From Giardia intestinalis (lineage: Eukaryota), in NCBI GenBank assembly GCA_000002435.2, contig CM018792.1: a stretch of DNA of 64,000 bases; one strand, 5' to 3'. Of this stretch, positions 2,433-61,447 are shown piece by piece; the stretch's first letter is position 1, and the number at the start of each line of letters is the position of its first letter. Position numbers and translations under genes: made by a program. The notes beneath the pieces were generated by a model, which made no database searches, was not told the origin of the DNA, and was given only the letters and a program-made list of their open reading frames with translations.

Positions 2433-3152
2433 TTACAGGTCCGAAATGGAGCTGTCTAGACCCAACTCAGGAAAGTCGCCAACTTCAACGGACAATGGCT
2501 TAACAAACGCCCCATATTTCATCTGTGCGTTGAAGTATTTAGTGCCTCCATGAGTCCCGTCGCTGTCACCCACTGGTTCGTCCAAGGTGACTCCGACAAA
2601 GTGTCCTTTCCCTAAAGAAGGAACGGGGCCTACAAACGCCACCTCCCCGCGCCTATCTCCAGACAGTCTACAGCGCATCCCAACACCTATCTTCTCTAGA
2701 GCTTCTGCCTCCATGGCTACCTCTTTTCGTCTCTGGCGATGCGCATCTAGCACTTGCTTACGGTACTCTGGGTCACTCTTGAATTTCTCTCGGAGATACT
2801 GGCGCACGGTCCCGTCTAGCTTGTCATAGACTTCATCAGACATAACGTACTTTTCTATCTGAGAAAGATCGCTTAAGCCTGCTTCTCGAGCGATAGAGAG
2901 CGGGTTAGTGTCGTCCACTAGAAGCTCCATCCCATCTCTGGCGTTATAATCTGAAAGAGAAGAAGATGAATCTCCTAAATCTATCACCCGGTCATCTGAT
3001 ACTCTCAGTCGAAGCACCTGATGCTGTGGCATTGTCCCAGTCATCTTATAGATTTGATCTTTGACAGAGCTGAGAGGCTCATTTTCCGCAAACTTGCACT
3101 CAAAGAAGCGTTGCTGGAGAAGAGCGTGCCTGACGTGGAGTAAGACCACCAT
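2433..3152 (-). CDS. Tubulin-folding cofactor B-like protein (N-terminal ubiquitin-like region plus C-terminal CAP-Gly domain)
   Basis: C-terminal CAP-Gly signature RCRLSGDRRGEVAFVGPVPSLGKGHFVGVTLDEPVGDSDGTHGGTKYFNAQMKYGAFVKP. Size (239 aa) and architecture match TBCB. Initiator tttaattaaATG on minus strand. Confidence 0.6.
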   Translation of the reverse strand: MVVLLHVRHALLQQRFFECKFAENEPLSSVKDQIYKMTGTMPQHQVLRLRVSDDRVIDLGDSSSSLSDYNARDGMELLVDDTNPLSIAREAGLSDLSQIEKYVMSDEVYDKLDGTVRQYLREKFKSDPEYRKQVLDAHRQRRKEVAMEAEALEKIGVGMRCRLSGDRRGEVAFVGPVPSLGKGHFVGVTLDEPVGDSDGTHGGTKYFNAQMKYGAFVKPLSVEVGDFPELGLDSSISDL

Positions 3153-5113: not shown

Positions 5114-7324
5114 ATGTTTGGCAGTTTTGTTCTCGCGGGGGTACTCGTCCAGATTGCATGGGCAGAAAAAGTAACAGAGCGCGCGGCTCAATGCGCAGAT
5201 AACACTAATTGCGCAGCAGAAGCATGCAACGTTCTGATCGGTGGTAAATTGTATTGCTCTCAATGTAACACAGGATTTGTTCCTATCAATGGACAATGTG
5301 CAGGCAAAGAAGATGCAAAAACCAAGTGTAAAGATACCGATGGAGGCGATACAGCTGATCAGACCTGTGGACAGTGCGCTGAGCAGACTTTCATGTACAA
5401 GGGCGGCTGTTACGAAGCAGCCCAGCAGCCCGGACAGACCATATGTCAGGCGGCAGAAAATGGAAAATGCACACAGGCTAAGGCTGGATACTTCGTGCCG
5501 CCGGGCGCAGACGCCTCTCACCAATCGGTCATACCGTGCGGAGACGAAGAGGAAATAACGGTTAAGAACGATAAAAAGTACAAGGGCGTAGTGCATTGTA
5601 CTCAGTGTAACGCTCCCGCAGAAGCAGCAGATGCTAACGCCAAGGCCGCCACATGTACTGCGTGCGGCGATAGCAAGATCGTCAAGACGGCCAAGGACCA
5701 AGCCACCTCCTGCGTGACAGAAAAAGAGTGCACGGATGCCCCAGGCTTCTTCGTTGATACGACGAGCGGTAAAAAATGCAGCAAGTGCGCTGAGACATGC
5801 AAGACCTGTAAGACCGAGGCTGCGAAGTGCACCTCCTGTAAGGACGACAAGCCGTACCTGAAGAAGGATGACGAGTCCACAACTGGCACGTGCGTTGACG
5901 CAAACGGCTGCCCGGCAACTCATTACGTTGATAAGGAAGCAAAGGAGTGCAACACCTGCGTTTCAGGAGGGACGGTGGACTGCACCACTTGTGAGAAAGG
6001 CGCCAACGGAGTGGTTTGTAAGACGTGTACGACTGGTACGAAGACCAAGTTTGGCCTTGGAAAGAAGTCATGCGTTGAGAACTGCCCCTCGAACTCCAGC
6101 GATGAAAAGACCCCTGGCACCTGTGAGTGCGTCGAGGGCTACGTTCCCGACGACGCGGGCACCGGGTGTACGAAGAAATCCGACCCCCAGTGCAACACCC
6201 CCGGCTGCAAGACGTGCAGTGATCCGAAGAAAGACAAGGAGGTGTGCACAGAATGCGAAGACCCCAAGGCCCTCACGCCCACGGGCCAGTGCATCGATAA
6301 CTGCGGAGATCTGGGAGGCTACTACGAGGGCACCAACGAGGGGGGCAAGAAGGCCTGCAAGAAGTGCGAGGTCGAGAACTGCCTCCTGTGCAATGGGCAG
6401 GGACAGTGCGAGACCTGCAAGGACGGGTACTACAAGAGCGGAGCCGCCTGTGCCAAGTGCGATACCTCGTGCAAGACGTGCGCGAACGGGAAGCCCAACG
6501 GGTGTACGAGCTGCGAGCCTAAGCAGGTCCTCAGCTACGAAGGGGAGGGCACGGGGACGTACAAACCAGAATGCAAGCCAGTGAGCGGCGGCAAGGATGG
6601 AACGTGCAAGAGCTGCGACCTGAGCATAGACGGGACAAGCTACTGTTCTGCCTGTAACGTGGGCACGGAGTATCCAGAGAACGGTGTGTGCGTCAAGAAG
6701 TCGGCCCGCACAGCCTCCTGCCAGGTCGAACCGAGCAATGGTGTGTGCGGGACATGTGCAAAGGGCTTCTTCCGCATGAACGGGGGCTGCTACGAAACGA
6801 CCAAACTCCCTGGAAAGAACGTCTGTGAGGAGGCAGCACCGACCGGCGATACCTGTCAGACTCCGGCCGACGGGTACAAACTGAATAACGGCGCGCTCAT
6901 CACTTGCTCGGCCGGATGTAAGACGTGCACCAGCCAGGACCAGTGCGACACGTGTAAGGCTGGATATGCTAAGACTGGCGGTAACACTAAGAAGTGCGTT
7001 CCCTGCGCCACTGGGTGCTCCGAGTGCAATGCGGACGACGCCACCAAGTGCACGGTGTGCGCTGCAGGGTACTACCTGTCCAAAGAAAAGTGCATAGCAT
7101 GCGACAAGAGCGACGGCGGATCCATCACCGGCGTCGCCAACTGCGCCAACTGCGCTCCCCCAACCAACAATAAAGGGCCTGTCCTCTGCTACCTCATACA
7201 GAACACCAACAGGAGCGGGCTTTCCACGGGGGCCATAGCGGGGATCTCCGTCGCTGTCATCGCTGTCGTGGGGGGCCTCGTGGGCTTCCTCTGCTGGTGG
7301 TTCATATGTAGAGGGAAGGCGTGA
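5114..7324 (+). CDS. Variant-specific surface protein (VSP), head gene of the tandem array (737 aa; signal peptide, CXXC-rich ectodomain, TM, CRGKA tail)
   Basis: The track ORF begins at 4688, but the VSP-type signal peptide MFGSFVLAGVLVQIAWA begins at ATG 5114 (in frame). There are many CXXC and GGCY motifs. C-terminus is NRSGLSTGAIAGISVAVIAVVGGLVGFLCWWFICRGKA followed by stop. Confidence 0.9.
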   Translation: MFGSFVLAGVLVQIAWAEKVTERAAQCADNTNCAAEACNVLIGGKLYCSQCNTGFVPINGQCAGKEDAKTKCKDTDGGDTADQTCGQCAEQTFMYKGGCYEAAQQPGQTICQAAENGKCTQAKAGYFVPPGADASHQSVIPCGDEEEITVKNDKKYKGVVHCTQCNAPAEAADANAKAATCTACGDSKIVKTAKDQATSCVTEKECTDAPGFFVDTTSGKKCSKCAETCKTCKTEAAKCTSCKDDKPYLKKDDESTTGTCVDANGCPATHYVDKEAKECNTCVSGGTVDCTTCEKGANGVVCKTCTTGTKTKFGLGKKSCVENCPSNSSDEKTPGTCECVEGYVPDDAGTGCTKKSDPQCNTPGCKTCSDPKKDKEVCTECEDPKALTPTGQCIDNCGDLGGYYEGTNEGGKKACKKCEVENCLLCNGQGQCETCKDGYYKSGAACAKCDTSCKTCANGKPNGCTSCEPKQVLSYEGEGTGTYKPECKPVSGGKDGTCKSCDLSIDGTSYCSACNVGTEYPENGVCVKKSARTASCQVEPSNGVCGTCAKGFFRMNGGCYETTKLPGKNVCEEAAPTGDTCQTPADGYKLNNGALITCSAGCKTCTSQDQCDTCKAGYAKTGGNTKKCVPCATGCSECNADDATKCTVCAAGYYLSKEKCIACDKSDGGSITGVANCANCAPPTNNKGPVLCYLIQNTNRSGLSTGAIAGISVAVIAVVGGLVGFLCWWFICRGKA

Positions 7325-7338
7325 CTTAGGTAGTGAAT
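7325..7338 (+). promoter_or_regulatory. Conserved VSP 3' motif/polyadenylation signal (CTTAGGTAGTGAAT; AGTGAAT = AGTRAAY at 7332..7338)
   Basis: Immediately 3' of the TGA; fits the Giardia AGTRAAY polyA signal and the extended VSP 3' motif ACTYAGRTAGTRAAY (recalled from literature). Repeated at 9158-9171, 10991-11004, 12890-12903, 14699-14712, 63830-63843, and as AGTAAAT at 16544-16550. Confidence 0.75.
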
Positions 7339-9157
7339 GCTGTACAGTGATAGTGATAGTGATAGTGCTATGTGGTGTGGGGGTGATAGTGGTGGTGTGG
7401 GACTTTTCTTCATGGGCGGGTGCTACAAGACAGAGAGTCAGCCCGGCAGTGACATATGCACAGCAGCCAGTAATGGAGTATGCACTACTTGTAAGGCAGA
7501 TAACGGCCTGTTCAAGAACCCAGTTACACCTCAGAAGCCTGGTAGCGAGTGCATCCTGTGCTCTGATACTAAGGGAGCAGATGGATATACGGGGGTGGCC
7601 AACTGCCTCAAGTGCACAGAACCAACTAATAGTCCAGGAGCTGCCACGTGCACTGAGTGTCAAGAGGGGTACTATAAAGAGAATAACGAATGCAATCAGT
7701 GTGATCAGTCCTGTCTGACTTGCAGTGGAAGTGGTCCGAATCATTGCACATCCTGTAAGGAGGGGAAGTATCTGAAAAGCGATAATACCTGTTCACCTAC
7801 ATGTGAAGGAAACACTTATGCTGACCCTGTGACAAGGACATGCAAGGAGTCTGGTATAGCAGATTGCACCGCGTGTGAGTACAACACGACTGTCAGCAAG
7901 CCCCAGTGCACCGCCTGTAACAATAAGAAGGTGAAGACAGAGCTGGATGGGACAACCACTTGCGTCGATGATGCTGGGTGCGCAACAGATAACGTCGACG
8001 GATCCCACTTTCTGAGTGATGATAGCACCAAGTGCATATTATGCAGTGATACAACAACAGGAACAGAAGCAAACGACAAGGGGATTGCTAATTGTAAAAC
8101 GTGTAAGAAGAACGGAGCCAAGCCGACCTGCTCAGCTTGCCTCGACGGATACTTTGGTTCTGATACATGCACAGCTTGCGGTGCCAACTGTGCTACATGC
8201 TCTGCTGCTGGCAATGATCAGTGCACTAAATGCAAGCCTGGATTCTTCATGAAACAACCCGGCTCTACTGGTGAGTGTGTTGCTTGCGACAGTAAAGCCG
8301 ACAATGGCATCGAGGGATGCAGTGCATGCACAAACGATGGCGGTGCTTTCAAGTGCACCGATTGCAAGCCCAACTATCGCAAGGAGGGCAGTACTGGCTC
8401 TGTCACATGCACCAAGACCTGTGAAGATGATACTACCTGTGGTGGTACCTCTGGCGCCTGTGATGCCATGATAATAGATGATCAGGGCACCACAAAGCAC
8501 TATTGCTCATACTGTGGGGATAGTTCACAAGCTCCTATCGATGGTCTCTGTGCTACTGATAAGAATGGGAATACTTGTACCAATAATGTCTGTACATCAT
8601 GTACTCAAGGGTACTTCTTGTACATGGACGGCTGTTATAGTACTCAGAGTCAACCTGGTAACCTCATGTGCAAGACAGCTAACAACGGGGTCTGTACAGC
8701 CGTTAATGAGAATAATAAGTACTTCATAGTACCAGAAGCAAAGCCTACTCAGCAGTCTGTACTAGCATGTGGTAACCCATTAGGCACACTAGTAGATACT
8801 AAGGCATATGTGGGGGTGGATGGCTGCTCCCAGTGTACAGCCCCAACAGCTCCATCTGAGGGTGGCATGACCCCCGCTGTGTGTACCTCCTGTGACAGTG
8901 GTAAGAAGCCCAACAGGGATGGCACTGGGTGTGTGACATGCTCTGACACCAACTGCAAGAGCTGTGCGATGGACGGTGTGTGTGGGGAGTGCAACAGTGG
9001 CTTCAGTCTAGACAATGGCAAGTGCGTGTCCACTGGCGCCAACAGGAGCGGGCTCTCCACGGGGGCCATCGCGGGCATCTCCGTCGCCGTGGTCGTCGTC
9101 GTGGGGGGCCTCGTGGGCTTCCTCTGCTGGTGGTTCGTGTGCAGGGGGAAGGCGTGA
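7337..9157 (+). CDS. VSP-family ORF, 5'-truncated cassette (606 aa; no signal peptide; likely pseudogene or silent cassette). Its ATG lies inside the preceding gene's polyA signal
   Basis: Same frame as the head gene. Begins MLYSDSDSDSAMWCGGDSGGVGLFFMGGCYKTESQPG (translation of the microsatellite, then a GGCY module). Ends ...GLSTGAIAGISVAVVVVVGGLVGFLCWWFVCRGKA. Confidence 0.75.
   Translation: MLYSDSDSDSAMWCGGDSGGVGLFFMGGCYKTESQPGSDICTAASNGVCTTCKADNGLFKNPVTPQKPGSECILCSDTKGADGYTGVANCLKCTEPTNSPGAATCTECQEGYYKENNECNQCDQSCLTCSGSGPNHCTSCKEGKYLKSDNTCSPTCEGNTYADPVTRTCKESGIADCTACEYNTTVSKPQCTACNNKKVKTELDGTTTCVDDAGCATDNVDGSHFLSDDSTKCILCSDTTTGTEANDKGIANCKTCKKNGAKPTCSACLDGYFGSDTCTACGANCATCSAAGNDQCTKCKPGFFMKQPGSTGECVACDSKADNGIEGCSACTNDGGAFKCTDCKPNYRKEGSTGSVTCTKTCEDDTTCGGTSGACDAMIIDDQGTTKHYCSYCGDSSQAPIDGLCATDKNGNTCTNNVCTSCTQGYFLYMDGCYSTQSQPGNLMCKTANNGVCTAVNENNKYFIVPEAKPTQQSVLACGNPLGTLVDTKAYVGVDGCSQCTAPTAPSEGGMTPAVCTSCDSGKKPNRDGTGCVTCSDTNCKSCAMDGVCGECNSGFSLDNGKCVSTGANRSGLSTGAIAGISVAVVVVVGGLVGFLCWWFVCRGKA
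7347..7367 (+). repeat. (GTGATAG)3 perfect heptamer microsatellite in the VSP inter-unit junction
   Basis: cagtGATAGTGATAGTGATAGtgc. Identical copy at 12912..12932. Degenerate GGTGATA/GGTGATAG heptamers at 9182-9228, 11015-11058, 14723-14769, 63863-63898. Confidence 0.85.
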
Positions 9158-9220
9158 CTTGGGTAGTGAATGCTGTACAGTGGGTGATAATGGGTGATAG
9201 AAGGTGATAGAGGGTGATAG

Positions 9221-10990
9221 TGGAGTGAGATATGCACACAGGCTAGTGATGGACTGTGCACTGCTTGTAAGGCAGCTAACCAGTACATATTCCAGAACAG
9301 GGCAGAGAGGGTGACCCCTGGTGGGGAGTGCATCCTCTGTCATGATGCCACGGGAGCGAATGAGAACAAAGGAGTGGCTAACTGCCTCAAGTGCACGGCA
9401 CCAGCTAATAGTCCAGGGGCTGCCACGTGTACTGAGTGCATGTCTGGCTTCTCAGGAGACTCGTGTGCTACTCAATGCGGAGGAGACTGTGCCGCCTGTG
9501 ATAAGAGTAACCAAAATCAGTGCACCTCTTGTAAGACTGGGAAGTACCTGAAAGAGAATCAATGTGTGGAAAAAAGTGCATGTAACAACAATCACTACCC
9601 CGATGACACTAGCATGACCTGCGTCGCCTGTAGCACCATACAAGATTGCACAGCATGCACAATGGACCAGTCCACGGGGAAGCCAAAGTGCACTAACTGC
9701 GGTGCCAGTAAGATCCCCAGGACGACTCTCGACGGAACCTCGACCTGCGTGACAAAAGGGTATGATCAGTGTCAAGGCACAGATAAGGAGCTGTTCATGA
9801 AGGAGGACCAATCGGCGTGCTTATTATGCGGAGACAATACTGAGGATACATCTGAGTCCAATAAAAACCAGGGAACTCCTAATTGCAAGACCTGTACCAA
9901 GACAGCATCCACTAAACCGGTCTGTGAGACGTGCAAGGATGGCTTCTTCTTTAATACTGGTGATAAGACATGTACAAACAAGTGCGATGCCACCTGCAAG
10001 ACGTGCTCTGCTGCTACAGATGCTAACCGATGCTTAACTTGTATGCCCGGATACTTCCCCATCGATAGTACAGATCAACAAGGGAAGAAGTGCGTCCCAT
10101 GCGATAGTGTGGACGACAAGGGTCGCGAAGGGTGCAGTGTCTGCTCTAACAATGGTGGATTCAAGTGTACTGAATGTAAGGTGAACTATAAGAAGCAGTC
10201 CAATGGAGATGCAGGGGATGACTATACATGTGTGAAGACTTGTGAAGACCCCACGGCTTGTGGTGGGACCTCTGGCGCCTGCGATGCTATAGTAATCGAC
10301 AATGATGGAGTAGAGCATCATTACTGTTCTTATTGTGGAAATCAAGGAGATGTACCAATCAATGGTATATGCACCAGCTCACTTGCAAGTAATACCTGCG
10401 CCGATGGTGTCTGCAAGTCTTGTGCTCAAGGGTACTTTATGTATATGGGAGGGTGCTATGATGTGTCGAAGGCTCCTGGTAGTCACATGTGCAAGAAAGC
10501 AGATAACAATGGGATATGCACAGAGGCGGCAAGTAATAGGTACTTCGTAGTCCCTGGGGCACAGACCACTGATCAGTCTGTATTAGCCTGTGGCAACCCC
10601 CTAGGCACACTAGTAGGCACTCAAGGTACCGCTAAGGCATACGTGGGGGTGGATGGCTGCTCACAGTGCACAGCCCCAGCAGGTCTGTCTGAGGGTGGCA
10701 TGACCCCCGCTGTCTGTACCTCCTGTGACAATAGTAAGAAGCCCAACAAGGATGGCAGCGGGTGTGTGCTGTGCTCTGACACCAACTGCAAGAGCTGTGT
10801 GATGGACGGTGTGTGTGGGGAGTGCAACAGTGGCTTCAGTCTAGACAATGGTAAGTGTGTGTCCTCTGGCGCCAACAGGAGCGGGCTCAGCACGGGCGCC
10901 ATCGCGGGGATCTCCGTGGCTGTCATCGCTGTCGTGGGGGGCCTCGTGGGCTTCCTCTGCTGGTGGTTCGTGTGCAGGGGGAAGGCGTGA
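9221..10990 (+). CDS. VSP-family 5'-truncated cassette (VSP-like frame opens at 9221 after the last in-frame junction stop; track ORF 9311..10990, 559 aa; no ATG or signal peptide at the 5' end)
   Basis: ICTQASDGLCTACKAANQYIFQN...TPGGECILCHDATGANENKG..., ends ...ISVAVIAVVGGLVGFLCWWFVCRGKA. Near-identical to 14762..16531. Confidence 0.75.
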   Translation, partial: WSEICTQASDGLCTACKAANQYIFQNRAERVTPGGECILCHDATGANENKGVANCLKCTAPANSPGAATCTECMSGFSGDSCATQCGGDCAACDKSNQNQCTSCKTGKYLKENQCVEKSACNNNHYPDDTSMTCVACSTIQDCTACTMDQSTGKPKCTNCGASKIPRTTLDGTSTCVTKGYDQCQGTDKELFMKEDQSACLLCGDNTEDTSESNKNQGTPNCKTCTKTASTKPVCETCKDGFFFNTGDKTCTNKCDATCKTCSAATDANRCLTCMPGYFPIDSTDQQGKKCVPCDSVDDKGREGCSVCSNNGGFKCTECKVNYKKQSNGDAGDDYTCVKTCEDPTACGGTSGACDAIVIDNDGVEHHYCSYCGNQGDVPINGICTSSLASNTCADGVCKSCAQGYFMYMGGCYDVSKAPGSHMCKKADNNGICTEAASNRYFVVPGAQTTDQSVLACGNPLGTLVGTQGTAKAYVGVDGCSQCTAPAGLSEGGMTPAVCTSCDNSKKPNKDGSGCVLCSDTNCKSCVMDGVCGECNSGFSLDNGKCVSSGANRSGLSTGAIAGISVAVIAVVGGLVGFLCWWFVCRGKA

Positions 10991-11059
10991 CTTGGGTAGT
11001 GAATGCTGTACAGTGGGTGATAATGGGTGATAGAAGGTGATAGAGGGTGATAATGGAGT

Positions 11060-12889
11060 GTGATATGTACAGCAGCCAGTGATGGAGTGTGCACTGCTTG
11101 TAACACAGCTAACCAGTACATATTCCAGAACAAGGCTACGACAGTGACCCCTGGTGGGGAGTGCATCCTCTGTCATGATGCCACGGGAGCGAATGAGAAC
11201 AAAGGAGTGGCTAACTGCCTCAAGTGCACGGAACCAAGTGGTAGTCCAGGAGCTGCCACGTGTACAGAGTGTCAAGCAGGGTACTATAAAGATGGTAACG
11301 GTGCATGTGTCAAATGTAATGAAGCTTGTCTGACTTGCAGCGGTGAGGGCGCAACTAAGTGCACCCTCTGTGCGGGCGAGAAGTATCTCGATGGGAATAA
11401 TTGTGTAGATGCTAGCAGTTGTAATGGAGATAAGTACCCCAACCCAAGCACTGGGAAGTGCACAGCTTGTAACGCTGGAGCAGATCAGGGGGGCATACCA
11501 GAGTGCACTGCTTGCACGTACAATGCAAAGCTACAGAAGCCGGTGTGCAGTGCCTGTAACGGTAAGAAGGTGAAGACAGAGCTGGATGGGACAACAACCT
11601 GTGTCGATGATGCTGGGTGCAAAAAAGACAGCACACACTTTGTTGACGATGATAATACTATGTGTGTTCTGTGCAGCGATACCAGCGGAAACGAGCCAAA
11701 TAAGAACAAGGGACTCAAAGGCTGTAAGGCATGTACTAAGCAGTCCAGTAGTCCCCCCACGTGTACCGGATGCTTACCCGGATATTACGATTCCGGCTCG
11801 TTTGTTTGTGAGCTCTGCACAGGGAACTGTGCCACCTGCGAAGGTGCTAATGCTAACCAGTGCCAAACCTGCAAGCCGGGATACTTCCTGAAAGGAGGCC
11901 AAGCACCTGCGGAGTGTGTCGCCTGTGATAGCACCGCCGATAACGGAGTCCCCGGCTGCGCAACATGCACCTTTGATACCATACTAACATGCGACTCCTG
12001 CAAGCCCGACTACAAGCTAACAGGGACTGGGTGTCAAAAGGTCTGTGAGGACACAACGGGGTGTGGTGGTACCTCTGGCGCTTGTGATGCCACAGTGATC
12101 GATGCTAATGGAAAGGAGCTTCACTACTGTTCCTATTGTGGAGAGAGTGGTAAGTATCCTATCGATGGGAAGTGTGTTGATAACGCTCAAAGTAATCAAT
12201 GCGCTGATGGTGTATGTACACAGTGTGCTCAAGGGTACTTTATGTACATGGGCGGGTGCTATAGCACTACCAATGCTCCTGGTAAGTCCATGTGCAAGAC
12301 AGCTGAAGGTGGCAAGTGCACAGCTGCTAATGAGAATAATAGGTACTTCGTAGTACCAGGGGCATCCAACACTGATCAGTCTGTACTAGCATGTGGTAAC
12401 CCATTAGGCACACTAGTAGGCACTAGTAATACTGCTAAGGCATACGTGGGGGTCGAGGGCTGCTCACAGTGTACGGCCCCAGCAGCTCTGTCTGATGGTG
12501 GTATGACTGCTGCTATATGCACTTCTTGTGACAATAGTAAGAAGCCCAACAAGGATGGCAGTGGGTGCTTCACATGTACCATCGATGGATGCTCGCACTG
12601 CAATAGAGACAACATGTGCGAGGCATGTAGTGATGGTAAGAAGGTGAGCCCTGGGAGGAAGTCATGCGTGGATGGCTGCCCCAGCAACTCCACTGATGAT
12701 AACTCTGTCTGTGTGTGCAACGATGGGTACAGCCCTGATGATGCTGGGGCCTCCTGTGTGTCCTCTGGCGCCAACAGGAGCGGGCTTTCCACGGGGGCCA
12801 TAGCGGGGATCTCCGTCGCTGTCATCGCTGTCGTGGGGGGCCTCGTGGGCTTCCTCTGCTGGTGGTTCATATGTAGAGGGAAGGCGTGA
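11060..12889 (+). CDS. VSP-family 5'-truncated cassette (609 aa; GTG alt-start in track, no ATG or signal peptide)
   Basis: VICTAASDGVCTACNTANQYIFQNKATTVTPGGECILCHDATG..., ends ...ISVAVIAVVGGLVGFLCWWFICRGKA. Same frame as the others. Confidence 0.75.
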   Translation: MICTAASDGVCTACNTANQYIFQNKATTVTPGGECILCHDATGANENKGVANCLKCTEPSGSPGAATCTECQAGYYKDGNGACVKCNEACLTCSGEGATKCTLCAGEKYLDGNNCVDASSCNGDKYPNPSTGKCTACNAGADQGGIPECTACTYNAKLQKPVCSACNGKKVKTELDGTTTCVDDAGCKKDSTHFVDDDNTMCVLCSDTSGNEPNKNKGLKGCKACTKQSSSPPTCTGCLPGYYDSGSFVCELCTGNCATCEGANANQCQTCKPGYFLKGGQAPAECVACDSTADNGVPGCATCTFDTILTCDSCKPDYKLTGTGCQKVCEDTTGCGGTSGACDATVIDANGKELHYCSYCGESGKYPIDGKCVDNAQSNQCADGVCTQCAQGYFMYMGGCYSTTNAPGKSMCKTAEGGKCTAANENNRYFVVPGASNTDQSVLACGNPLGTLVGTSNTAKAYVGVEGCSQCTAPAALSDGGMTAAICTSCDNSKKPNKDGSGCFTCTIDGCSHCNRDNMCEACSDGKKVSPGRKSCVDGCPSNSTDDNSVCVCNDGYSPDDAGASCVSSGANRSGLSTGAIAGISVAVIAVVGGLVGFLCWWFICRGKA

Positions 12890-12901
12890 CTTAGGTAGTG
12901 A

Positions 12902-14698
12902 ATGCTGTACAGTGATAGTGATAGTGATAGTGCTATGTGGTGTGGGGGTGATAGTGGTGGTGTGGGACTTTTCTTCATGGGCGGGTGCTACAAGACAGAG
13001 AGTCAGCCCGGCAGTGACATATGCACAGCAGCCAGTAATGGAGTATGCACTACTTGTAAGGCAGATAACGGCCTGTTCAAGAACCCAGTTACACCTCAGA
13101 AGCCTGGTAGTGAGTGCATCCTGTGCTCTGATACGACAGATAGAAACGGGGTCATGGGAGTCGCTGGATGCTCAGAATGCTCCCACACGGGCACTAGCGG
13201 ACCGGCCACGTGTACAGAGTGTCAAGCAGGGTTCGTTACGAAGGACAGTGCATGTGTGAAGTGCGGAGACGGCTGCTCTGCTTGCTCAGCTGATACTCCG
13301 ACTCAGTGTACCGCCTGCGTTGAGGGGAAGTACTTGAAGGGTGGTAACACTTGTGTAGATGCTGGTGGATGTGACAATGGTAACTATGCGGACAAGAAGA
13401 CCTGGACCTGTAAGGCCTGCAGTGAGATACAAGGATGCACCGCGTGTGCATACGACGACGCCACGGGAAAGCCGAAGTGCACCGACTGCGGTAGTAAGAC
13501 GGTCAGAGACGAGCTGGATGGGACAACGACCTGTGTTGATGAGGCCGAGTGCAAAGTGGGCAAGACGCACTTCTACGACGCCTCGAAGTGCGTGCAGTGC
13601 GGCGACAATGGTAAGGGCGGAGTCCAGAACTGCAAGCTGTGCACCGCAAAAGGCACCTGCGAGGCTTGTGTCGACGGGTATAAAGTCAACGGAAACGCCT
13701 GCGAGGCCTGCACAGGAAACTGCGCAGAGTGCGGAACAGCGGGTCAAATCAACACATGTACAAGATGCATGCCGGGGTACTTCCTTAAGGATGGCCCGCC
13801 TAAGACATGCGTTCTCTGTGATGACGAGACAAGTGGGATTCCAGGCTGTGCCGAGTGCACAGGCGGCGTGGGGTCCCTCAAATGCACTGAATGTAAGCCC
13901 AACTACAGACCCAGCGGAGAACCTAGCGACCTCACATGTACAAAGACCTGCGAGGATGAGACGGCGTGTGGGGGTACCTCTGGCGCTTGTGATGCCACAG
14001 TGATCGATGCTAATGGAAAGGAGCTTCATTACTGTTCATACTGTGGAGAGAGTGGTAAGTATCCTATCGATGGGAAGTGTGTTGATAATGCTCAAAGTAA
14101 TACTTGTAACAACCATGTATGTACATCATGTGCTCAAGGGTACTTCTTGTATATGGGAGGTTGTTACAAGGTTGATACAGTACCTGGCAACTATATGTGC
14201 AAGGCATCAAGTAAGGAGGGGATATGCACAGAGGCAGCCAACAATAGGTACTTCGTAGTCCCTGGGGCACAGACCACTGATCAGTCTGTACTAGCATGTG
14301 GTAACCCATTAGGCACACTAGTAGGCACTCAAGGTACCGCTAAGGCATACGTGGGGGTGGATGGCTGCTCACAGTGCACAGCCCCAGCAGGTCTGTCTGA
14401 GGGTGGCATGACCCCCGCTGTCTGTACCTCCTGTGACAATAGTAAGAAGCCCAACAAGGATGGCAGCGGGTGTGTGCTGTGCTCTGACACCAACTGCAAG
14501 AGCTGTGTGATGGACGGTGTGTGTGGGGAGTGCAACAGTGGCTTCAGTCTAGACAATGGTAAGTGTGTGTCCTCTGGCGCCAACAGGAGCGGGCTCAGCA
14601 CGGGCGCCATCGCGGGCATCTCCGTCGCCGTGGTCGTCGTCGTGGGGGGCCTCGTGGGCTTCCTCTGCTGGTGGTTCGTGTGCAGGGGGAAGGCGTGA
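12902..14698 (+). CDS. VSP-family 5'-truncated cassette (598 aa), a mosaic: 5' region equals unit 7337-9157, middle equals unit 11060-12889, 3' region equals units 9221-10990 and 14762-16531
   Basis: Its first about 80 aa and its junction are identical to unit 2. The block CEDETACGGTSGACDATVIDANGKELHYCSYCGESGKYPIDGKCVDNAQSN is shared with unit 4. The C-terminal about 130 aa are shared with units 3 and 6. CRGKA tail. Confidence 0.75.
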   Translation: MLYSDSDSDSAMWCGGDSGGVGLFFMGGCYKTESQPGSDICTAASNGVCTTCKADNGLFKNPVTPQKPGSECILCSDTTDRNGVMGVAGCSECSHTGTSGPATCTECQAGFVTKDSACVKCGDGCSACSADTPTQCTACVEGKYLKGGNTCVDAGGCDNGNYADKKTWTCKACSEIQGCTACAYDDATGKPKCTDCGSKTVRDELDGTTTCVDEAECKVGKTHFYDASKCVQCGDNGKGGVQNCKLCTAKGTCEACVDGYKVNGNACEACTGNCAECGTAGQINTCTRCMPGYFLKDGPPKTCVLCDDETSGIPGCAECTGGVGSLKCTECKPNYRPSGEPSDLTCTKTCEDETACGGTSGACDATVIDANGKELHYCSYCGESGKYPIDGKCVDNAQSNTCNNHVCTSCAQGYFLYMGGCYKVDTVPGNYMCKASSKEGICTEAANNRYFVVPGAQTTDQSVLACGNPLGTLVGTQGTAKAYVGVDGCSQCTAPAGLSEGGMTPAVCTSCDNSKKPNKDGSGCVLCSDTNCKSCVMDGVCGECNSGFSLDNGKCVSSGANRSGLSTGAIAGISVAVVVVVGGLVGFLCWWFVCRGKA

Positions 14699-14761
14699 CT
14701 TGGGTAGTGAATGCTGTACAGTGGGTGATAATGGGTGATAGAAGGTGATAGAGGGTGATAG

Positions 14762-16531
14762 TGGAGTGAGATATGCACACAGGCTAGTGATGGACTGTGC
14801 ACTGCTTGTAAGGCAGCTAACCAGTACATATTCCAGAACAAGGCTACGACAGTGACCCCTGGTGGGGAGTGCATACTGTGCCATGATGCCACGGGAGCGA
14901 ATGAGAACAAGGGAGTGGCTAATTGCCTCAAGTGCACGGCACCAGCTAATAGTCCAGGGGCTGCCACGTGTACTGAGTGCATGTCTGGCTTCTCAGGAGA
15001 CTCGTGTGCTACTCAATGCGGAGGAGACTGTGCCGCCTGTGATAAGAGTAACCAAAATCAGTGCACCTCTTGTAAGACTGGGAAGTACCTGAAAGAGAAT
15101 CAATGTGTGGAAAAAAGTGCATGTAACAACAATCACTACCCCGATGACACTAGCATGACCTGCGTCGCCTGTAGCACCATACAAGATTGCACAGCATGCA
15201 CAATGGACCAGTCCACGGGGAAGCCAAAGTGCACTAACTGCGGTGCCAGTAAGATCCCCAGGACGACTCTCGACGGAACCTCGACCTGCGTGACAAAAGG
15301 GTATGATCAGTGTCAAGGCACAGATAAGGAGCTGTTCATGAAGGAGGACCAATCGGCGTGCTTATTATGCGGAGACAATACTGAGGATACATCTGAGTCC
15401 AATAAAAACCAGGGAACTCCTAATTGCAAGACCTGTACCAAGACAGCATCCACTAAACCGGTCTGTGAGACGTGCAAGGATGGCTTCTTCTTTAATACTG
15501 GTGATAAGACATGTACAAACAAGTGCGATGCCACCTGCAAGACGTGCTCTGCTGCTACAGATGCTAACCGATGCTTAACTTGTATGCCCGGATACTTCCC
15601 CATCGATAGTACAGATCAACAAGGGAAGAAGTGCGTCCCATGCGATAGTGTGGACGACAAGGGTCGCGAAGGGTGCAGTGTCTGCTCTAACAATGGTGGA
15701 TTCAAGTGTACTGAATGTAAGGTGAACTATAAGAAGCAGTCCAATGGAGATGCAGGGGATGACTATACATGTGTGAAGACTTGTGAAGACCCCACGGCTT
15801 GTGGTGGGACCTCTGGCGCCTGCGATGCTATAGTAATCGACAATGATGGAGTAGAGCATCATTACTGTTCTTATTGTGGAAATCAAGGAGATGTACCAAT
15901 CAATGGTATATGCACCAGCTCACTTGCAAGTAATACCTGCGCCGATGGTGTCTGCAAGTCTTGTGCTCAAGGGTACTTTATGTATATGGGAGGGTGCTAT
16001 GATGTGTCGAAGGCTCCTGGTAGTCACATGTGCAAGAAAGCAGATAACAATGGGATATGCACAGAGGCGGCAAGTAATAGGTACTTCGTAGTCCCTGGGG
16101 CACAGACCACTGATCAGTCTGTATTAGCCTGTGGCAACCCCCTAGGCACACTAGTAGGCACTCAAGGTACCGCTAAGGCATACGTGGGGGTGGATGGCTG
16201 CTCACAGTGCACAGCCCCAGCAGGTCTGTCTGAGGGTGGCATGACCCCCGCTGTCTGTACCTCCTGTGACAATAGTAAGAAGCCCAACAAGGATGGCAGC
16301 GGGTGTGTGCTGTGCTCTGACACCAACTGCAAGAGCTGTGTGATGGACGGTGTGTGTGGGGAGTGCAACAGTGGCTTCAGTCTAGACAATGGTAAGTGTG
16401 TGTCCTCTGGCGCCAACAGGAGCGGGCTCAGCACGGGCGCCATCGCGGGGATCTCCGTGGCTGTCATCGCTGTCGTGGGGGGCCTCGTGGGCTTCCTCTG
16501 CTGGTGGTTCGTGTGTAGAGGGAAGGCGTAG
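14762..16531 (+). CDS. VSP-family 5'-truncated cassette, near-identical duplicate of 9221..10990 (track ORF 14852..16531 encodes the identical 559-aa product); terminal unit of the array
   Basis: ORF-track proteins for 9311..10990 and 14852..16531 are identical. Ends CRGKA + TAG, then AGTAAAT polyA signal (16544..16550). No further junction follows. Confidence 0.75.
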   Translation, partial: WSEICTQASDGLCTACKAANQYIFQNKATTVTPGGECILCHDATGANENKGVANCLKCTAPANSPGAATCTECMSGFSGDSCATQCGGDCAACDKSNQNQCTSCKTGKYLKENQCVEKSACNNNHYPDDTSMTCVACSTIQDCTACTMDQSTGKPKCTNCGASKIPRTTLDGTSTCVTKGYDQCQGTDKELFMKEDQSACLLCGDNTEDTSESNKNQGTPNCKTCTKTASTKPVCETCKDGFFFNTGDKTCTNKCDATCKTCSAATDANRCLTCMPGYFPIDSTDQQGKKCVPCDSVDDKGREGCSVCSNNGGFKCTECKVNYKKQSNGDAGDDYTCVKTCEDPTACGGTSGACDAIVIDNDGVEHHYCSYCGNQGDVPINGICTSSLASNTCADGVCKSCAQGYFMYMGGCYDVSKAPGSHMCKKADNNGICTEAASNRYFVVPGAQTTDQSVLACGNPLGTLVGTQGTAKAYVGVDGCSQCTAPAGLSEGGMTPAVCTSCDNSKKPNKDGSGCVLCSDTNCKSCVMDGVCGECNSGFSLDNGKCVSSGANRSGLSTGAIAGISVAVIAVVGGLVGFLCWWFVCRGKA

Positions 16532-16718
16532 ATGTACTTAGGTAGTAAATGCGTCGACCGTGTTCAAGCTGTCAGGTGTTGTGGCATATACTTGTGAAGC
16601 TCGTCTGGTACTGGGATTTATAGACTTCCATCTAATTACCACGAACAGATAAATTTCTAAAAAACTCGCCGCTTGGGACTTCGAGGCTTTTATTAGTTAG
16701 CTTAGGCATTTCTAGGCA

Positions 16719-17813
16719 ATGGTCAAGATAGCAAGTTGCAATATCAACTACTGGCACGATTACCGTGGAATATATGTCGGAGAGCAGATCGTCTCGTTTC
16801 TTTCGTCTGCTGTTTCCTCTACGGATGTGCTGTGCCTTCAGAATGTATCATATACGCAGCGGTACCTTTCTACTGTGCCAGCGCACTTCAGAGAGGTTCA
16901 GCTTTGCTGCTCTCACTTTCATGGAGCAATGGTGGTGAAAGCAGACTGCTCATCTATATCTAACTTTGTCTCGTCTTTAAAGCAACACCTTGGCCTCCCA
17001 TTAACAGCAGTCATCTCTATTTGTTCAGAAGATAAGAAGTTTGTCATTCCAGGTACCCTTTCTCCTGAGAGTCAACAAACACCTGTTCCAGAGTTGTCCT
17101 CCATCCTTTTCATCACAATAGTGCATCCCGGATCATGGGCCGGTGCAGCCTCAATTCATACTAGCAGTGCCCTCAATGCCTTAATAGAAGAGCTTAAAAT
17201 GCCCAATATCTTCTGCTTTCCTGTGGGGACCAATTCAATGGGGACCGTGCTTCTATCGAGGTTCCCAGTAATGAGTATTACCATCCAGAATCTCTTTGTA
17301 ACCCCTAGTCATCTTCTATCTGTCCCCGTAGTAACTATACAGACTCCAGACAGTGTTCAGTTTAACCTTTTCATTATCTCTCTCACCAGCGACCATGCCA
17401 CGCGACGCTTAGAATGTAACCAATTGCAACTCTTTCTACAGACATGCAAAGACTTTCAATCTTGCCCCACATTTCTATGTGGAGAATTCAATGCAATCAA
17501 TCGTAACGAGTACACCAAAACCCAATGGAATCATATCACAAAGCAACATATAGAGAACGGAAGCCCTTTTCTTGATGAGCCAATTTACGATGAGCTCCTT
17601 AAAGATGGGTTTATAGACGTGCTTTGGGGAGCTCCGTTGCAGCCGAAAAGTGGTGATATCTTTATCCATAGCGGGAAGAACAGAAGGACTCAGTATATCT
17701 TTACTTCTGCACGTCTTCATGGGTGCACATCTAGAGCTTTATTTAGTCATGACGCCACAACGAAGCTGGACTACATAACAGCCGATATACATATGTCCTT
17801 GAGAGCATGCTAA
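16719..17813 (+). CDS. Endonuclease/exonuclease/phosphatase (EEP)-family protein
   Basis: N-terminal VKIASCNINYWHD (like ...SWNINGL), VLCLQNV (like DIVCLQEV), LTSDHA (SDH motif), C-terminal TQYIFTS. AT-rich initiator ttttattagttag...ATG. Confidence 0.45.
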   Translation: MVKIASCNINYWHDYRGIYVGEQIVSFLSSAVSSTDVLCLQNVSYTQRYLSTVPAHFREVQLCCSHFHGAMVVKADCSSISNFVSSLKQHLGLPLTAVISICSEDKKFVIPGTLSPESQQTPVPELSSILFITIVHPGSWAGAASIHTSSALNALIEELKMPNIFCFPVGTNSMGTVLLSRFPVMSITIQNLFVTPSHLLSVPVVTIQTPDSVQFNLFIISLTSDHATRRLECNQLQLFLQTCKDFQSCPTFLCGEFNAINRNEYTKTQWNHITKQHIENGSPFLDEPIYDELLKDGFIDVLWGAPLQPKSGDIFIHSGKNRRTQYIFTSARLHGCTSRALFSHDATTKLDYITADIHMSLRAC

Positions 17814-19420
17814 TTTACAACGATAGTTACTAGTATTAACGCCAAACCGACGCAAACAGAGACTGCGATACTGGTAGAACTAGCGAATGCACTAGTAATG
17901 GTGGTACATTGTTCTGTCTTGTGGTCCCATGTACCTTTTTTGCAGAAGCATCCGACGCCTGATTTTCCTGTGGGCCACCTATTACCAGAGGGACACTGCT
18001 GACATGTGGATGTTCCCCCCTTGCTATAGCTGTTTCTCTGACACTGAATACATCCAGCATCTATATTGTCTGCATCTCTTAGAACAAAGCCTGGCGCGCA
18101 CTCACAGTATTCTTCCAAGCGAGCACCGTCGTGCACCGTTGTCTTATTGGGAGGACAGGGTACACATTCGACTTGGCCAACTTCTTCATTGTAGAATCCT
18201 ATAGGGCACGGGTCGCATTCGGATGCAGCAGTCTTATTTGAATACGTTCCTGCTTCACACGGCGCACATGTGCCAGAACTGGCTTGTCCACGCTCTCCCG
18301 GGCCGCAGATAGCACCAAAGGCGACTATGGGGCTAACTTCATCAATATATGGTTCAGAACTAGGCTCTGCCACTACTTGATCAGGGAACAGTGTTTCCAA
18401 GACACTGTATGAAAACAGCTCAACCCCACTATTAGAGATAGAGGTTACAACATCTCCATTGACACTGTTGTAGAACCCTGTATCAAGGCTAGACTCTCGG
18501 TTATATAATAGAATAGTCTTTATCACAGCAGCGCTGCCTTCAGTTCTATCCATGTGCTCATGTGCAGTTTCTACAAATTCTTCCAGCCACATGCTCTTTG
18601 CCTTCGTGCTGCTAACCATTTCCCCGTGCCCATCATCCACCATGCTTGAGGTTCCACCTATGAGCATGACAGGTTTCCCTGGAGCGAGACTAGACGCAAC
18701 CCCCATCCCTACCTGAATCGGCTCCCTTGGATCTACCCAGTTATGTATGTCATCGTTGATGAGCTGCAATGCTATCCAATTAACGTAAGATTCTCCCGGG
18801 AAATACTCAGACGGTGTATGGACAAGATTGGTAGTATCCAAAGCATACGGATTGCCCTCGACTGCCTTAAACTTTGTAATATCAATATTCCACCCCCAGA
18901 TAATCCTGTCTGCAACTCCAGCTGCCTTCCCTTTAAGGTGAAGCCTCTTGTAAACCCTGACATACAGCTCTGGGTCTTCCGACCAGTACACGCCATTTGA
19001 ATTGCAGGTTGTGCCAAAGAAGAGCACACAATAGGATTTCTGCACTGTTCCATTCAGTAGTGTGAAAAAAGCGTCAATTATGTCGTCATGCAATCCATCC
19101 TCTATTGCCTGCAATGTGTCCCGATACGTGTCACTTAGTAAGGGGTTCCAGTTGATAACAGGAATTGCGTTCACAGATACGATTGCATTGATCTCGTCTT
19201 CAACACTTTTTAACGTTGCACTGGTTGTGGTCCAAGCCACGTCCAATGCTCTAAATACAAGCCGCTTTCCCAAGAAAAGCTCAGTATCAAATGTCTCATT
19301 AATAGGAAACCACCCACTGACACTTCCCAACACTGCAGCGCCTGCAAAGACAGGATGGAAAAGCCAGACACATACAAAGGCGATGCTTAGAAGCATAGGT
19401 ACGTGGATGTTACTGTACAT
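17810..19420 (-). CDS. Type I membrane protein: N-terminal signal/TM, large ectodomain, Cys-rich ephrin-receptor/GCC2_GCC3-like repeats, C-terminal TM
   Basis: MLLSIAFVCVWLFHPVFAGAA leader; repeats CAPCEAGTYSNKT..CDPCPIGFYNEE..CVPCPPNKTT..CIQCQRNSYSKGG..CQQCPSGN; terminal hydrophobic VSVCVGLALILVTIVVN. Stop overlaps the convergent neighbour by 4 nt. Confidence 0.5.
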   Translation of the reverse strand: MYSNIHVPMLLSIAFVCVWLFHPVFAGAAVLGSVSGWFPINETFDTELFLGKRLVFRALDVAWTTTSATLKSVEDEINAIVSVNAIPVINWNPLLSDTYRDTLQAIEDGLHDDIIDAFFTLLNGTVQKSYCVLFFGTTCNSNGVYWSEDPELYVRVYKRLHLKGKAAGVADRIIWGWNIDITKFKAVEGNPYALDTTNLVHTPSEYFPGESYVNWIALQLINDDIHNWVDPREPIQVGMGVASSLAPGKPVMLIGGTSSMVDDGHGEMVSSTKAKSMWLEEFVETAHEHMDRTEGSAAVIKTILLYNRESSLDTGFYNSVNGDVVTSISNSGVELFSYSVLETLFPDQVVAEPSSEPYIDEVSPIVAFGAICGPGERGQASSGTCAPCEAGTYSNKTAASECDPCPIGFYNEEVGQVECVPCPPNKTTVHDGARLEEYCECAPGFVLRDADNIDAGCIQCQRNSYSKGGTSTCQQCPSGNRWPTGKSGVGCFCKKGTWDHKTEQCTTITSAFASSTSIAVSVCVGLALILVTIVVN

Positions 19421-34837: not shown

Positions 34838-37800
34838 ATGACCAATGCAGGGTTTTATCGCACTCTATGGAAGACAGGCCTCTTTGACACTGACATGCTG
34901 AAGCGGCAAGTCCAAGAAAAAGACGAGGATGTTCAGCTCTGGAGTAGTGCGGAGCTGCTATTAGATCTTATCAGATCTGATAGACCACGTCCCCCCTTTA
35001 CCAAAGTCAGTGCAGAGATCTTTTTTGATGGCTCCCAATCCGCAGAAGCTGATGAGAAACCTTCCATAGACGTTAAAGGGGCCACTTTGAACCTTTTCTT
35101 TGACATCTTACATCAGTCGTCAATCTTGACCAGTAGCCTAGTTCAATACTTGACCACCAAACTACTCCTTAATTGGAGTGATGTGGATACAATTTCAGCG
35201 TCCCTAGATCCTGTGGGATACGTTTGTTTACTGCTGGTTTACCACTCAATGGTCTCATCAGATTCGGCACTCGTCCTTTTAATAGAGAAGTTAATTACGG
35301 CAACTATCCATTCAATCAGTAATAAGCGCTTCAATGAGACTTTAGGAACGTTTTTGGTCATTTGTCGGGGAACTCTAGTTGACATTGAGGAGCTAATAAT
35401 ACGTCACTCCATCTCTCTGCAAAACCTTGCACAGTATGAGAGGAATCTTGCCTTTCTTTCAGGGATGGCACACGGGTACACATACCTGCAAATAGAGTCC
35501 CATAAGTTCGCTGTTTTAAGCAAGCACTGCGGCTTCTCTCGCGGGGATACATTCGCTCTATCACAATCACTAATGAAAGTGCTGCCGGCAAACCAGTGTT
35601 TGTTACAATATCAATATATGGATCTCCTTGCTATTGTTCTGTCCGTCAATCTGTGGCAACCTCAAGCGTGCAGCACTCTTACCGATTTCCTAAATCACAT
35701 TCAGGCATTAAGTCATCAAGCAGGCTATAAATTAAAGACTGCAATGCGCATCAATCCCCATAGCTTCTTAGCTGTTTCTATTATCCGTCTATGCTCACGA
35801 CTTAAAAGCTTTGTCAATGGATCTCTTGAGCAATTGCAAGTGAAGACTCCAGCGCAACAAAATATTCTCGTCACGCTGCGCACGCTGCTGCAGCGGATGC
35901 AGCTATTGATCACTGATGCCCTCAACGGACAGGCAACCGTGGCAGCTAAGAGCAATATTTTTCTGAAGGACCTTCGATCAACGTTCCCGACCATGTACAG
36001 TGAGTTTATACGGCCATATTGTTGCGCATTTATAGTACTGCTTGATGTATGTGCATATTTGAATAAGAGAGGCGTAGAGATCGGACTCGACACGACAGAC
36101 ATGCAAGAGTCTTTGCTTATCATCTGGAGGTCACTTATTGTCTTGGATGCTCCTTATCTGGGCCATAAAGACACCAAGAAAGGCCTTTACTTCCATCTCT
36201 CCTCGGGCTTCTATTGTGATTCCCTGTTAGACTTTCTACTAGAACATCTCAACATTTCTACGTCAGACAACAATTTCTTCAGTAAGTTAACTGAGGTAAA
36301 TTGGTCCACACTATTCAAGCACCTTGCCTTTCATACAGAGCCAGTTCCGTTTGTCTTTTCTTCCGATAGGAAATATAGTTTAGAGGAGGAAATGCCGGCC
36401 GGAAGTCTGCATCACCTACGTGAGTCCCTGATAGCCGAGCTTAACTCCCGGTCGTTGTCTCATCGGAAGACGCGAGATGCGGTTAACTCCATTCCTGATG
36501 GATACATCTGTGGGCTCTACGCTCTCACTCTCATTGAGATTTATTCTGCGCTTTGGTCTGGACGAGGTTCATTGAGTCTAGCGTTCAACAAGAAAGAGAA
36601 ATCCGTAGTGGGCAGACTTAGTCGATATAATATCTATGGATACTTGCCTAAAGAACCTTTCAATGAGCTTATTAATTTTGAAAAGGAGATTGTAAGGCAG
36701 AAGTCCGAGGATAAAGGTGGTATCTACCTCCTCAATGAATCAGCAGGAGATGTTCCACTATACTTTTCATCTTCTAGCCCGTTAGATGCAGAGAACTGCA
36801 TTGTCTCTGTAGGGCCCATACCAGATGAGCCCCTTACAAATAATAAGAGCTCTGCAGGGATTTCTTCAACAAACTTTTTTAAGTTCTATGCCGAGCTTTT
36901 CTGTTCGGTGTATGAACAGCTCTCTTCATACACGTTTTTGGAAGAGCTTATCATTCACCAAGAAGTAGCACACAAATGGACTTCAATTTGCTTTGCTAGT
37001 AATCCTAAGACACACACTCGCACAATCCCTGTCTTTCTTGTTAAGGACGTGGACATCCCTGACCCTCTGCCAGACCTTTTATTTCGCAAGATTGTTTTTG
37101 AAATTGTCAATCTTCTTGTGAGCGCAGAAGACTCTATGTCGCTCACTGAAATTAATATCTATCTCGACTTCGCAGGCACACTATTGCAGAAGCTTCCCAA
37201 TATAAAGCTTAGCCCGTCTATACTCAGTCAATATATTCAAACAGGGGTTTCAATTTATAACAAATTTAATTTCATATTTGGTGTCACGGCAGATTATTTT
37301 GCATCCATTATGTCGAATTCTTTCTTTTTTGAACAGCTCTTAACGAGTGCATTTATCTGCAATGACAGACAGAAGATGCTCATGGTGGTACCAGCCATTA
37401 ATGAATTTTTCTCGAAGCTTTTCTCACACAATCGTTTTATCTCCGTCCTGTATGCACATGCTATTAATCATGCTGCCCTGAAACACTCAGATGTTAATTT
37501 TTCCACTGCAAACTTGCCCACTACCCTGTCGATAATTTTAAGCAACATATTCCTGAAGTTTACTCGTAACTCCTTCTTAGTCCAGCAACCTCAAGTTCAC
37601 AGTACTGAGGAATCCAACCAAGAGGGGTACAGATACATAGTTACAAGTCAGATTGAGTTCTCTTGTCTCATGACGGAGCTCAGAGAGCACTTGTGTAGCC
37701 TGCCCATTTGGGAGTACAAGCAGACGGCTATTGCGTGCCTAGAGTCCATGCTTGATATGCTGACAACTCCGCCCATAGCCCTAAACTTGGGCTCTAGCAA

Positions 37801-61374: not shown

Positions 61375-61447
61375 GAGCGGCTGTCTCTCACTGCTCGCGG
61401 CAACACACCAGCCTGACGGAAGAGCAGTGGCACGTGTACTCCGGCTA

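Follow-up and report, generated by a model that had tools for sequence, protein, structure and literature searches.

Mosaic cassettes in a Giardia pseudo-VSP linear array point to non-allelic recombination among VSP-family repeats

One complete variant-specific surface protein (VSP) gene, followed in frame and without spacers by five 5'-truncated pseudo-VSP cassettes, occupies positions 5114-16531 of the window analysed here, a stretch of 64,000 nucleotides of Giardia intestinalis (contig CM018792.1). We number the units U1 (the complete head gene, 5114-7324) to U6, and call U2-U6 (7325-16531) the cassettes. Taking identity and mechanism jointly, we consider it highly probable that this region corresponds to the chromosome-4 'linear array' of Giardia lamblia WB (assemblage A1) that comprises vsp92-94 and vsp103-105, and that its cassettes have been reshaped by recombination. 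Non-allelic homologous recombination among VSP-family repeats is a well-supported account of the patchwork that they show. An earlier sequence-only reading had ascribed this patchwork, with its sharp boundaries, to gene conversion or unequal crossing-over, and one or both of these remain the best explanation in view of the changing nearest neighbours, the pairwise homoplasy index (PHI) and the run lengths described below. The array, the recombination phenomenon and the reservoir hypothesis for such cassettes are already published, and our additions are modest detail. VSP antigenic variation underlies chronic giardiasis and the source of VSP diversity is debated; the locus provides a clean worked example in which pseudo-VSP cassettes exchange with neighbours, with another array and with other chromosomes.

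At least five parts make up the mosaic U5 (Table 1), where the sequence-only reading had counted three. The components that it had proposed were all recovered, namely a junction and first ~230 nt as in U2, a middle block in common with U4, a C-terminal stretch in common with U3 and U6, and the transmembrane (TM) variant of U2. Along the unit the nearest neighbour switches four times, at sites that are polymorphic among the cassettes, and uneven constraint therefore cannot explain it. Pairwise alignment of the units likewise gave abrupt blocks of identity rather than uniform divergence, with tracts of 100% lying beside segments of 55% in the same pair; overall, the cassettes are 65-73% identical. 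We used PHI and Sawyer-type runs of concordant sites, both restricted to polymorphic sites and compared with site permutations. PHI was 0.104, against 0.170 +/- 0.003 in the permuted data (p<=0.001), and for every pair the longest run exceeded those of all 2000 permutations (p<=0.0005). Judged against local background identity, the tracts had binomial probabilities from 4e-4 (the 82-nt tail) to 1e-49. A recombination-free history is rejected (p<=0.001).

U3 and U6 form a near-identical direct repeat, with 15 differences over 1833 nt and no indels. Six of these differences lie at 9300-9310 (cagggcagagagggtg / caaggctacgacagtg in U3/U6), five are synonymous third-position changes at 9334-9382, and the remaining four fall in the final 16 nt, where they comprise two synonymous changes and a stop codon that is TGA in U3 and TAG in U6. 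Were 15 differences placed uniformly, a gap of 1592 nt among them would have a probability of ~6e-12. The first patch is itself composite: at 9300-9310 U6 agrees with U4 and with a second array, described below, while U3 is unique, and at 9334-9382 U3 agrees with U4 while U6 is unique. The few-base difference that had been noticed at the junctions of the two units is real, but it is not confined to them. All coding differences are synonymous, and U3 translated from 9311 gives the same sequence as U6 translated from 14852, so that the earlier statement of identical products holds for the translations; its figure of 559 aa, however, depends on a GTG start, and from the first ATG the length is 516 aa. 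A homologue search with the U3/U6 open reading frame (ORF) found no protein above 61% identity and no annotated close relative.

Matches do not respect the limits of the units. The final 119 nt of the head gene (7206-7324) are identical to the final 119 nt of U4 and to those of no other unit, in agreement with the earlier observation that the TM segment of the head recurs only in U4, and the tails of all six units follow a period-3 pattern (U1=U4, U2=U5, U3=U6). Perfect tracts of 340 and 235 nt run across unit boundaries (Table 1). Because the matches of tail and junction continue across these boundaries, the type of a tail and the type of the next junction are coupled, and the exchange unit is not the cassette. 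The cassette-by-cassette description given previously, in which junction and TM matches were listed separately, thus resolves into single tracts crossing a unit boundary.

Two types of junction occur. Type A, at U1/U2 and U4/U5, consists of CTTAGGTAGTGAATG followed by (AGTGAT)n and keeps a GGCY-coding stretch; an open frame starts at an ATG 12 nt past the stop and gives a product without a signal peptide. Type B, at U2/U3, U3/U4 and U5/U6 and again after a second VSP at 63830, consists of CTTGGGTAGTGAATG followed by (GGTGATAnn)4, contains in-frame stops and is missing ~55 nt of type A. U1, U4 and U6 are each followed by an exact copy of the VSP extended polyadenylation signal (ACTYAGRTAGTRAAY), at 7324-7338 for U1 and 12889-12903 for U4, and the motif has four exact matches against 0 expected by chance. 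The stops of U2, U3 and U5 bear a variant with one mismatch, ACTTGGGTAGTGAAT. The junction repeats (7325-7400, 9158-9230, 10991-11063, 12890-12965, 14699-14771 and 63830-63900) directly follow the polyadenylation hexamer AGTGAA, and the (AGTGAT)n repeat encodes SDSDSDS. More speculatively, a VSP 3' end may first have become joined to a truncated VSP body through microhomology of AGTGAA with AGTGAT.

Exchange reaches beyond the array, and its earlier placement 'within the array' was too narrow. Residues 85-359 of U5 (nt 13154-13978) match 275/276 aa of KAE8304682.1, a 'High cysteine protein' on chromosome 5 (4.02-Mb WB contig), which departs from U5 at CGGT(S/A)GACDA, exactly at the start of the U4-like tract. 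In the 5' third of the unit, residues 40-143 match 103/104 aa of GL50803_114674, a protein of 720 aa with a leader, encoded on a different chromosome-scale contig (1.97 Mb) and reclassified as a complete VSP by Rodriguez-Walker et al. (10.1101/2022.03.07.483299). The second array, 47 kb away, contributes a further match, its first cassette being identical at 63884-64000 to U4 at 11047-11163 (117 nt, up to the window end). Exact blocks of 25-64 residues are also common to the cassettes and many other WB VSP and pseudo-VSP proteins. From these matches together we conclude that exchange is family-wide and not array-confined.

The VSP that stands ahead of the second array (PF03302; window 61004-64000, ORF end at 63829) contains six perfect tandem copies of a 225-nt repeat (61511-62866, 100% match). 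At 63830 it gives way to a type-B junction and the start of the other cassette array. This gene and array are probably vsp95/vsp96 in the catalogue of Adam et al. 2010, in which the repeat had been assembled with just 2 copies.

Within the array, the signal peptide and the initiator element (YAATGTT) are present in the head gene alone. The homology of the cassettes to a full-length clade-I VSP (ENA, P0005; ~75% nt identity) starts ~200 nt into that gene, so that they are without a leader and approximately the first 70-80 codons. U2 and U5 begin MLYSDSDSDS at GAATGCT, with no hydrophobic leader, and in U3, U4 and U6 the junction stops are in frame and are followed by 94-223 codons without an ATG. 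Since they have neither signal peptide nor initiator element, the five cassettes are pseudo-VSPs and not complete VSPs, and their description as genes with products in the sequence-only reading has to be withdrawn. The cassette bodies are cysteine-rich, intact and in frame, with a complete 3' end. The Pfam VSP family PF03302 matches all six units, from E=1e-140 for the head down to 3e-34 for the cassettes; CXXC and GGCY motifs are conserved in their alignment, and all six terminate in ...GGLVGFLCWWF(I/V)CRGKA and a stop codon. U4 carries an additional C-terminal module of ~32 codons. Every cassette begins at the base after the preceding stop codon (spacer = 0) and every cassette length is a multiple of three, so the whole array lies in one frame, broken only by the junction stops. 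Upstream, ~2 kb without a long ORF separate a 239-aa ORF (2433-3152) from the head ATG. Two or more adjacent head-to-tail units that have very little or no DNA between them, with the initiator and the upstream non-coding region on the first only, are what Adam et al. 2010 define as a linear array.

The individual units can be traced in existing records. The head ORF is exactly KAE8303950.1 / XP_001706652.2, a VSP of WB clone C6 on a 2.76-Mb contig, the U2 ORF (7337-9157) is identical to XP_001706653.1 over 606/606 aa, and the U5 ORF (12902-14698) matches XP_001703944.1 at 597/598 aa. Additional file 1 of Adam et al. 2010 (PMC2996952) gives vsp92/93/94 as 852, 606 and 516 aa (GL50803_137606, 114065 and 112009; GenBank AF236019), with vsp92 flagged as first array member, and vsp103/104/105 as 409, 598 and 516 aa. 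The lengths, order, chromosome-4 location and 'LA' labels of the units fit these entries, and by length and position the head gene is vsp92 (GL50803_137606), peptides of which have been detected in encysting cells (PMC3877021). The same 2007 Sanger-based catalogue lists two separate runs, vsp92-94 and vsp102-105, of which vsp102 is 5'-incomplete. As linear arrays often terminate contigs (Adam et al., PMC2996952), the two runs were presumably separate 2007 contigs, and the 2007 assembly would appear to have broken inside the U3/U6 repeat.

The equivalent locus in DH (assemblage A2; AHGT01000038.1, L007 13916-16213) holds one VSP between the same flanking genes. This VSP has a U1-like body, is U6-like from ~105 nt before its stop, and has a flank that continues as the U6 flank. 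Such a state is the expected product of an unequal crossover between conserved tails, with 9.2 kb deleted or never acquired. The WB and DH head orthologues show 38-94% aa identity per 50-residue window, in a pattern of alternating blocks at ~90% and ~40%, with flanks that are 97-99% identical; this pattern suggests that the head gene, too, was segmentally replaced between the sub-assemblages. Because the body of the WB head has no significant match to the cassettes, its donors would not have been the adjacent cassettes. A second head-like DH VSP (P0122) lies at a different locus and is uninformative. The contigs matching the downstream 364-aa gene are all short-read and end in the U6 tail, and do not cover array structure in other isolates.

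Another way to view the cassettes is through the constraint under which they have diverged. The four distinct cassettes have pairwise nonsynonymous-to-synonymous ratios (dN/dS) of 0.30-0.34 at dS ~0.8-1.1, with 67/71 cysteine columns conserved and no frameshifts or internal stops across 560-610 codons. Thus, the cassettes diverged as coding sequence rather than decaying freely as pseudogenes. The lack of any difference over the 1592 nt puts U3/U6 divergence there below 0.19% (95% bound), compared with 1.2-2.7% for the flanks between WB and DH, and so the U3/U6 event is much younger than the A1/A2 split. Youth in this sense is what the data give to the earlier word 'ongoing'; events are young relative to that split, U2 and U5 are near-unchanged since 2007, and present-day activity is unsupported. 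Specifically, comparison of the 2007 annotation with the present sequence finds U2 unchanged and U5 different at one residue. VSP genes were conserved between two AI isolates in a 2024 comparison (PMC11169602).

The single changed residue is encoded by codon 487 of U5 (14360-14362), which is Asp here, as in U3/U6, and Glu, as in U4, in the 2007 protein XP_001703944.1. The change could reflect a micro-conversion, a difference among alleles or among nuclei, or a consensus error in a repeat.

As an explanation of the locus we propose the following. The overall similarity of the cassettes, together with nearly invariant 3' tails and junctions, would permit misalignment and, with it, non-allelic homologous recombination. 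Segments would then be pasted between neighbouring cassettes by gene conversion, in both short and long tracts, and by unequal crossovers, and similar exchange would take place with the second array 47 kb away and with VSP copies that lie on other chromosomes. This process would have yielded the near-duplicates U3 and U6, the five-part U5 and the identical tracts that span boundaries, the direction of each transfer being inferred.

A possible, if doubtful, alternative course is one recent duplication of a ~5.5-kb block (U1 tail+U2+U3 giving U4 tail+U5+U6) by unequal sister-chromatid exchange, with later overwriting. It accounts for the period-3 pattern of the tails and for three long perfect tracts at near-equal offset (5565 or 5541 nt), the difference between the offsets being the difference in length between U2 and U5. 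However, the interiors of U2 and U5 are only ~55-65% identical across ~1.5 kb and the body of U4 is unrelated to that of the head, so that sequence from elsewhere would have to have replaced one of these two interiors as well as the body that precedes the first tail. A single 5.5-kb duplication as sole explanation is insufficient, because the U2 and U5 interiors differ; with the two or more large later replacements that are required, parsimony is no better than for independent conversions. Block duplication is in any case one version of the same recombination mechanism and implies no different biology. A history without recombination, in which common ancestry and uneven purifying selection, e.g. 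on the conserved 3' region, produced the pattern, is the least credible proposal of all; the final ~120 nt are indeed strongly conserved in all VSPs (PMC2996952), but the four changes of nearest neighbour in U5 occur at polymorphic sites, the PHI and run tests were restricted to such sites, and near-perfect and highly diverged segments alternate within the same pair. Scarcely more credible is an assembly artefact, in which misassembled repeats would have produced both the U3/U6 repeat and the mosaic unit. The short-read assemblies all stop at the array edge, and the 2010 catalogue splits the array into two gene runs, consistent with a 2007 assembly break. Yet in that catalogue the two 516-aa copies already stand beside different neighbours, one in vsp92-94 and the other in vsp102-105, the mosaic U5 was present in the 2007 annotation and the 2007 proteins match, and U3 and U6 differ without indels, in structured patches shared with U4. 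These points also rule against the assembly duplication that the sequence-only reading had named as a danger to its own interpretation.

Recombination among family repeats could further be part of a programme, with the cassettes serving as a donor archive in active use and copied piecemeal into expressed VSPs during infection, in the manner of Borrelia vls or of mosaic VSG formation in trypanosomes; the idea was raised in PMC2996952 and PMC7641422. We think this improbable, although, if true, antigenic diversity would gain a recombinational component beside epigenetic/RNA interference (RNAi) switching. The architecture fits, in that promoterless, 5'-truncated cassettes follow in frame behind an expression-competent gene, and so do the preservation of cassette ORFs under constraint, the 104-residue tract almost perfectly common to U5 and the complete VSP GL50803_114674, and the 1592-nt tract with zero differences. 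Against this, VSP switching in Giardia is reported to proceed without detectable DNA rearrangement, the head ectodomain shares nothing with its own cassettes, and one residue in U5 and none in U2 has changed since the 2007 annotation. Adam et al. 2010 term switching epigenetic (PMC2996952), VSP genes are reported to be conserved between AI isolates (PMC11169602), and essentially all pseudo-VSPs of Giardia muris are untranscribed (PMC7641422).

Our preferred reading, non-allelic homologous recombination at the vsp92-94/vsp103-105 array, has points weighing against it as well. At the nucleotide level, the body of the head gene (5114-7205) matches no cassette significantly, the only hits being of 28 nt (E=0.004). 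No tract is common to the head ectodomain and its own cassettes, and the array gives no evidence of cassette-to-head transfer. The single VSP of DH could be a collapse in a 454 assembly. The U3/U6 pair is compatible with either gene conversion or unequal crossover. Recombination is documented on the evolutionary time-scale only. The assignment to vsp92-94/103-105 was made from lengths, order, chromosome and two RefSeq proteins, and U5 was compared with the chromosome-5 paralogue and with GL50803_114674 at the protein level.

The cassettes may be tolerated leftovers, or they may form a reservoir from whose coding segments expressed VSPs diversify in evolution. We lean towards a reservoir on evolutionary time-scales, because coding constraint acted while they diverged and because a complete VSP has tracts nearly identical to theirs. 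Coding constraint and segment exchange are both consistent with the published reservoir hypothesis and add no new principle; the practical value lies in a well-mapped locus. Adam et al. 2010 (PMC2996952, BMC Genomics 11:424) reported that linear arrays hold more than half of the vsp genes, that the initiator stands on the first member only and that downstream members are separated by 0-241 bp. They found vsp recombination in other vsp groups with GENECONV and DualBrothers and proposed the cassette-reservoir hypothesis (PMC2996952). The PacBio WB genome contains pseudo-VSP arrays without start codons (PMC7000408; Xu et al. 2020, Sci Data 7:38), and later papers treat the cassettes as pseudo-VSP arrays undergoing segmental gene conversion. 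The interpretation given in the sequence-only reading thus coincides with what has been published. The present locus is one of these linear arrays, and its genes are outside the sets that were tested with GENECONV. Whereas Adam et al. 2010 found identical genes only as inverted pairs, U3 and U6 are two direct copies with identical 516-aa ORFs, and their statement is refined accordingly. Compared with the published descriptions, the full six-unit order and the tract map are given here from contiguous sequence.

The pseudo-VSP arrays of G. muris (Xu et al. 2020, Microb Genom 6:mgen000402), which are transcriptionally silent, resemble this one. They comprise 5-23 genes and are almost all adjacent to telomeres, whereas the WB array is chromosome-internal, surrounded by housekeeping genes, and directly behind an intact VSP. 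The vlsE/vls system of Borrelia and the VSG pseudogene arrays of Trypanosoma brucei have in common with it an expression-competent gene beside promoterless, 5'-truncated, contiguous cassettes, whose patchwork identity is typical of segmental gene conversion. Unlike in vls and mosaic VSG systems, no cassette transfer into the adjacent expressed gene is detectable here, the head sharing only its 119-nt tail, and that with U4.

Table 1. Coordinates of the array units, shared tracts and signal (positions in the window)
Feature	Position	Strand	Details
Head gene U1	5114-7324	+	complete VSP, 736 aa; signal peptide MFGSFVLAGVLVQIAWA; CAATGTT at ATG; TM domain; CRGKA tail
Cassette U2	7325-9157	+	1833 nt; type-A junction; open from ATG 7337 (606 aa); matches vsp93 (GL50803_114065)
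Cassette U3	9158-10990	+	1833 nt; type-B junction; first ATG 9440 (516 aa); matches vsp94 (GL50803_112009)
Cassette U4	10991-12889	+	1899 nt; type-B junction; 409 aa from first ATG; matches vsp103
Cassette U5	12890-14698	+	1809 nt; mosaic; type-A junction; ATG 12902 (598 aa); matches vsp104 (GL50803_114653)
Cassette U6	14699-16531	+	1833 nt; array end; near-copy of U3; TAG stop; 516 aa; matches vsp105
U5 part	12890-13110	+	U2, 221/221 nt
U5 part	13111-13972	+	no close relative within the array (53-57% identity)
U5 part	13973-14088	+	U4 12068-12183, 113/116; other cassettes 65-67%
U5 part	14243-14616	+	U3 10535-10908 and U6 16076-16449, 369/374; 307 nt exact
U5 part	14617-14698	+	U2, 82/82; exact run of 93 nt from 14606
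Perfect repeat core	9383-10974	+	1592 nt; 0 differences from 14924-16515 in U6
Variable patch	9300-9382	+	83 nt; 11/15 of the U3/U6 differences; partner 14841-14923; micro-mosaic
340-nt perfect tract	7206-7545	+	spans U1/U2 boundary; equals 12771-13110 across U4/U5
235-nt perfect tract	9065-9299	+	spans U2/U3 boundary; equals 14606-14840 across U5/U6; 93 nt upstream and 142 nt
VSP extended polyadenylation signal	16536-16550	+	ACTTAGGTAGTAAAT; 3' of the U6 TAG stop

The array has a chromosome-internal, not subtelomeric, setting. A unique gene lies downstream at 16719, and the neighbours include a cysteine-rich protein with an ephrin-receptor-like domain (17810-19420, minus strand), a 2259-aa PI3/PI4-kinase-like protein (34838-41617, plus strand) and a kinesin (41621-43498, minus strand). 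A bacterial-style reading of the GTG starts was rejected, these being by-products of G+C-rich in-frame repeats in a eukaryote. Long minus-strand ORFs, 558 aa at most, lie antisense to the VSP units (6068-7744 on the minus strand and others, between 5 and 16.5 kb), and they are most likely by-products of the G+C-rich, stop-poor composition of the repeats rather than genes.

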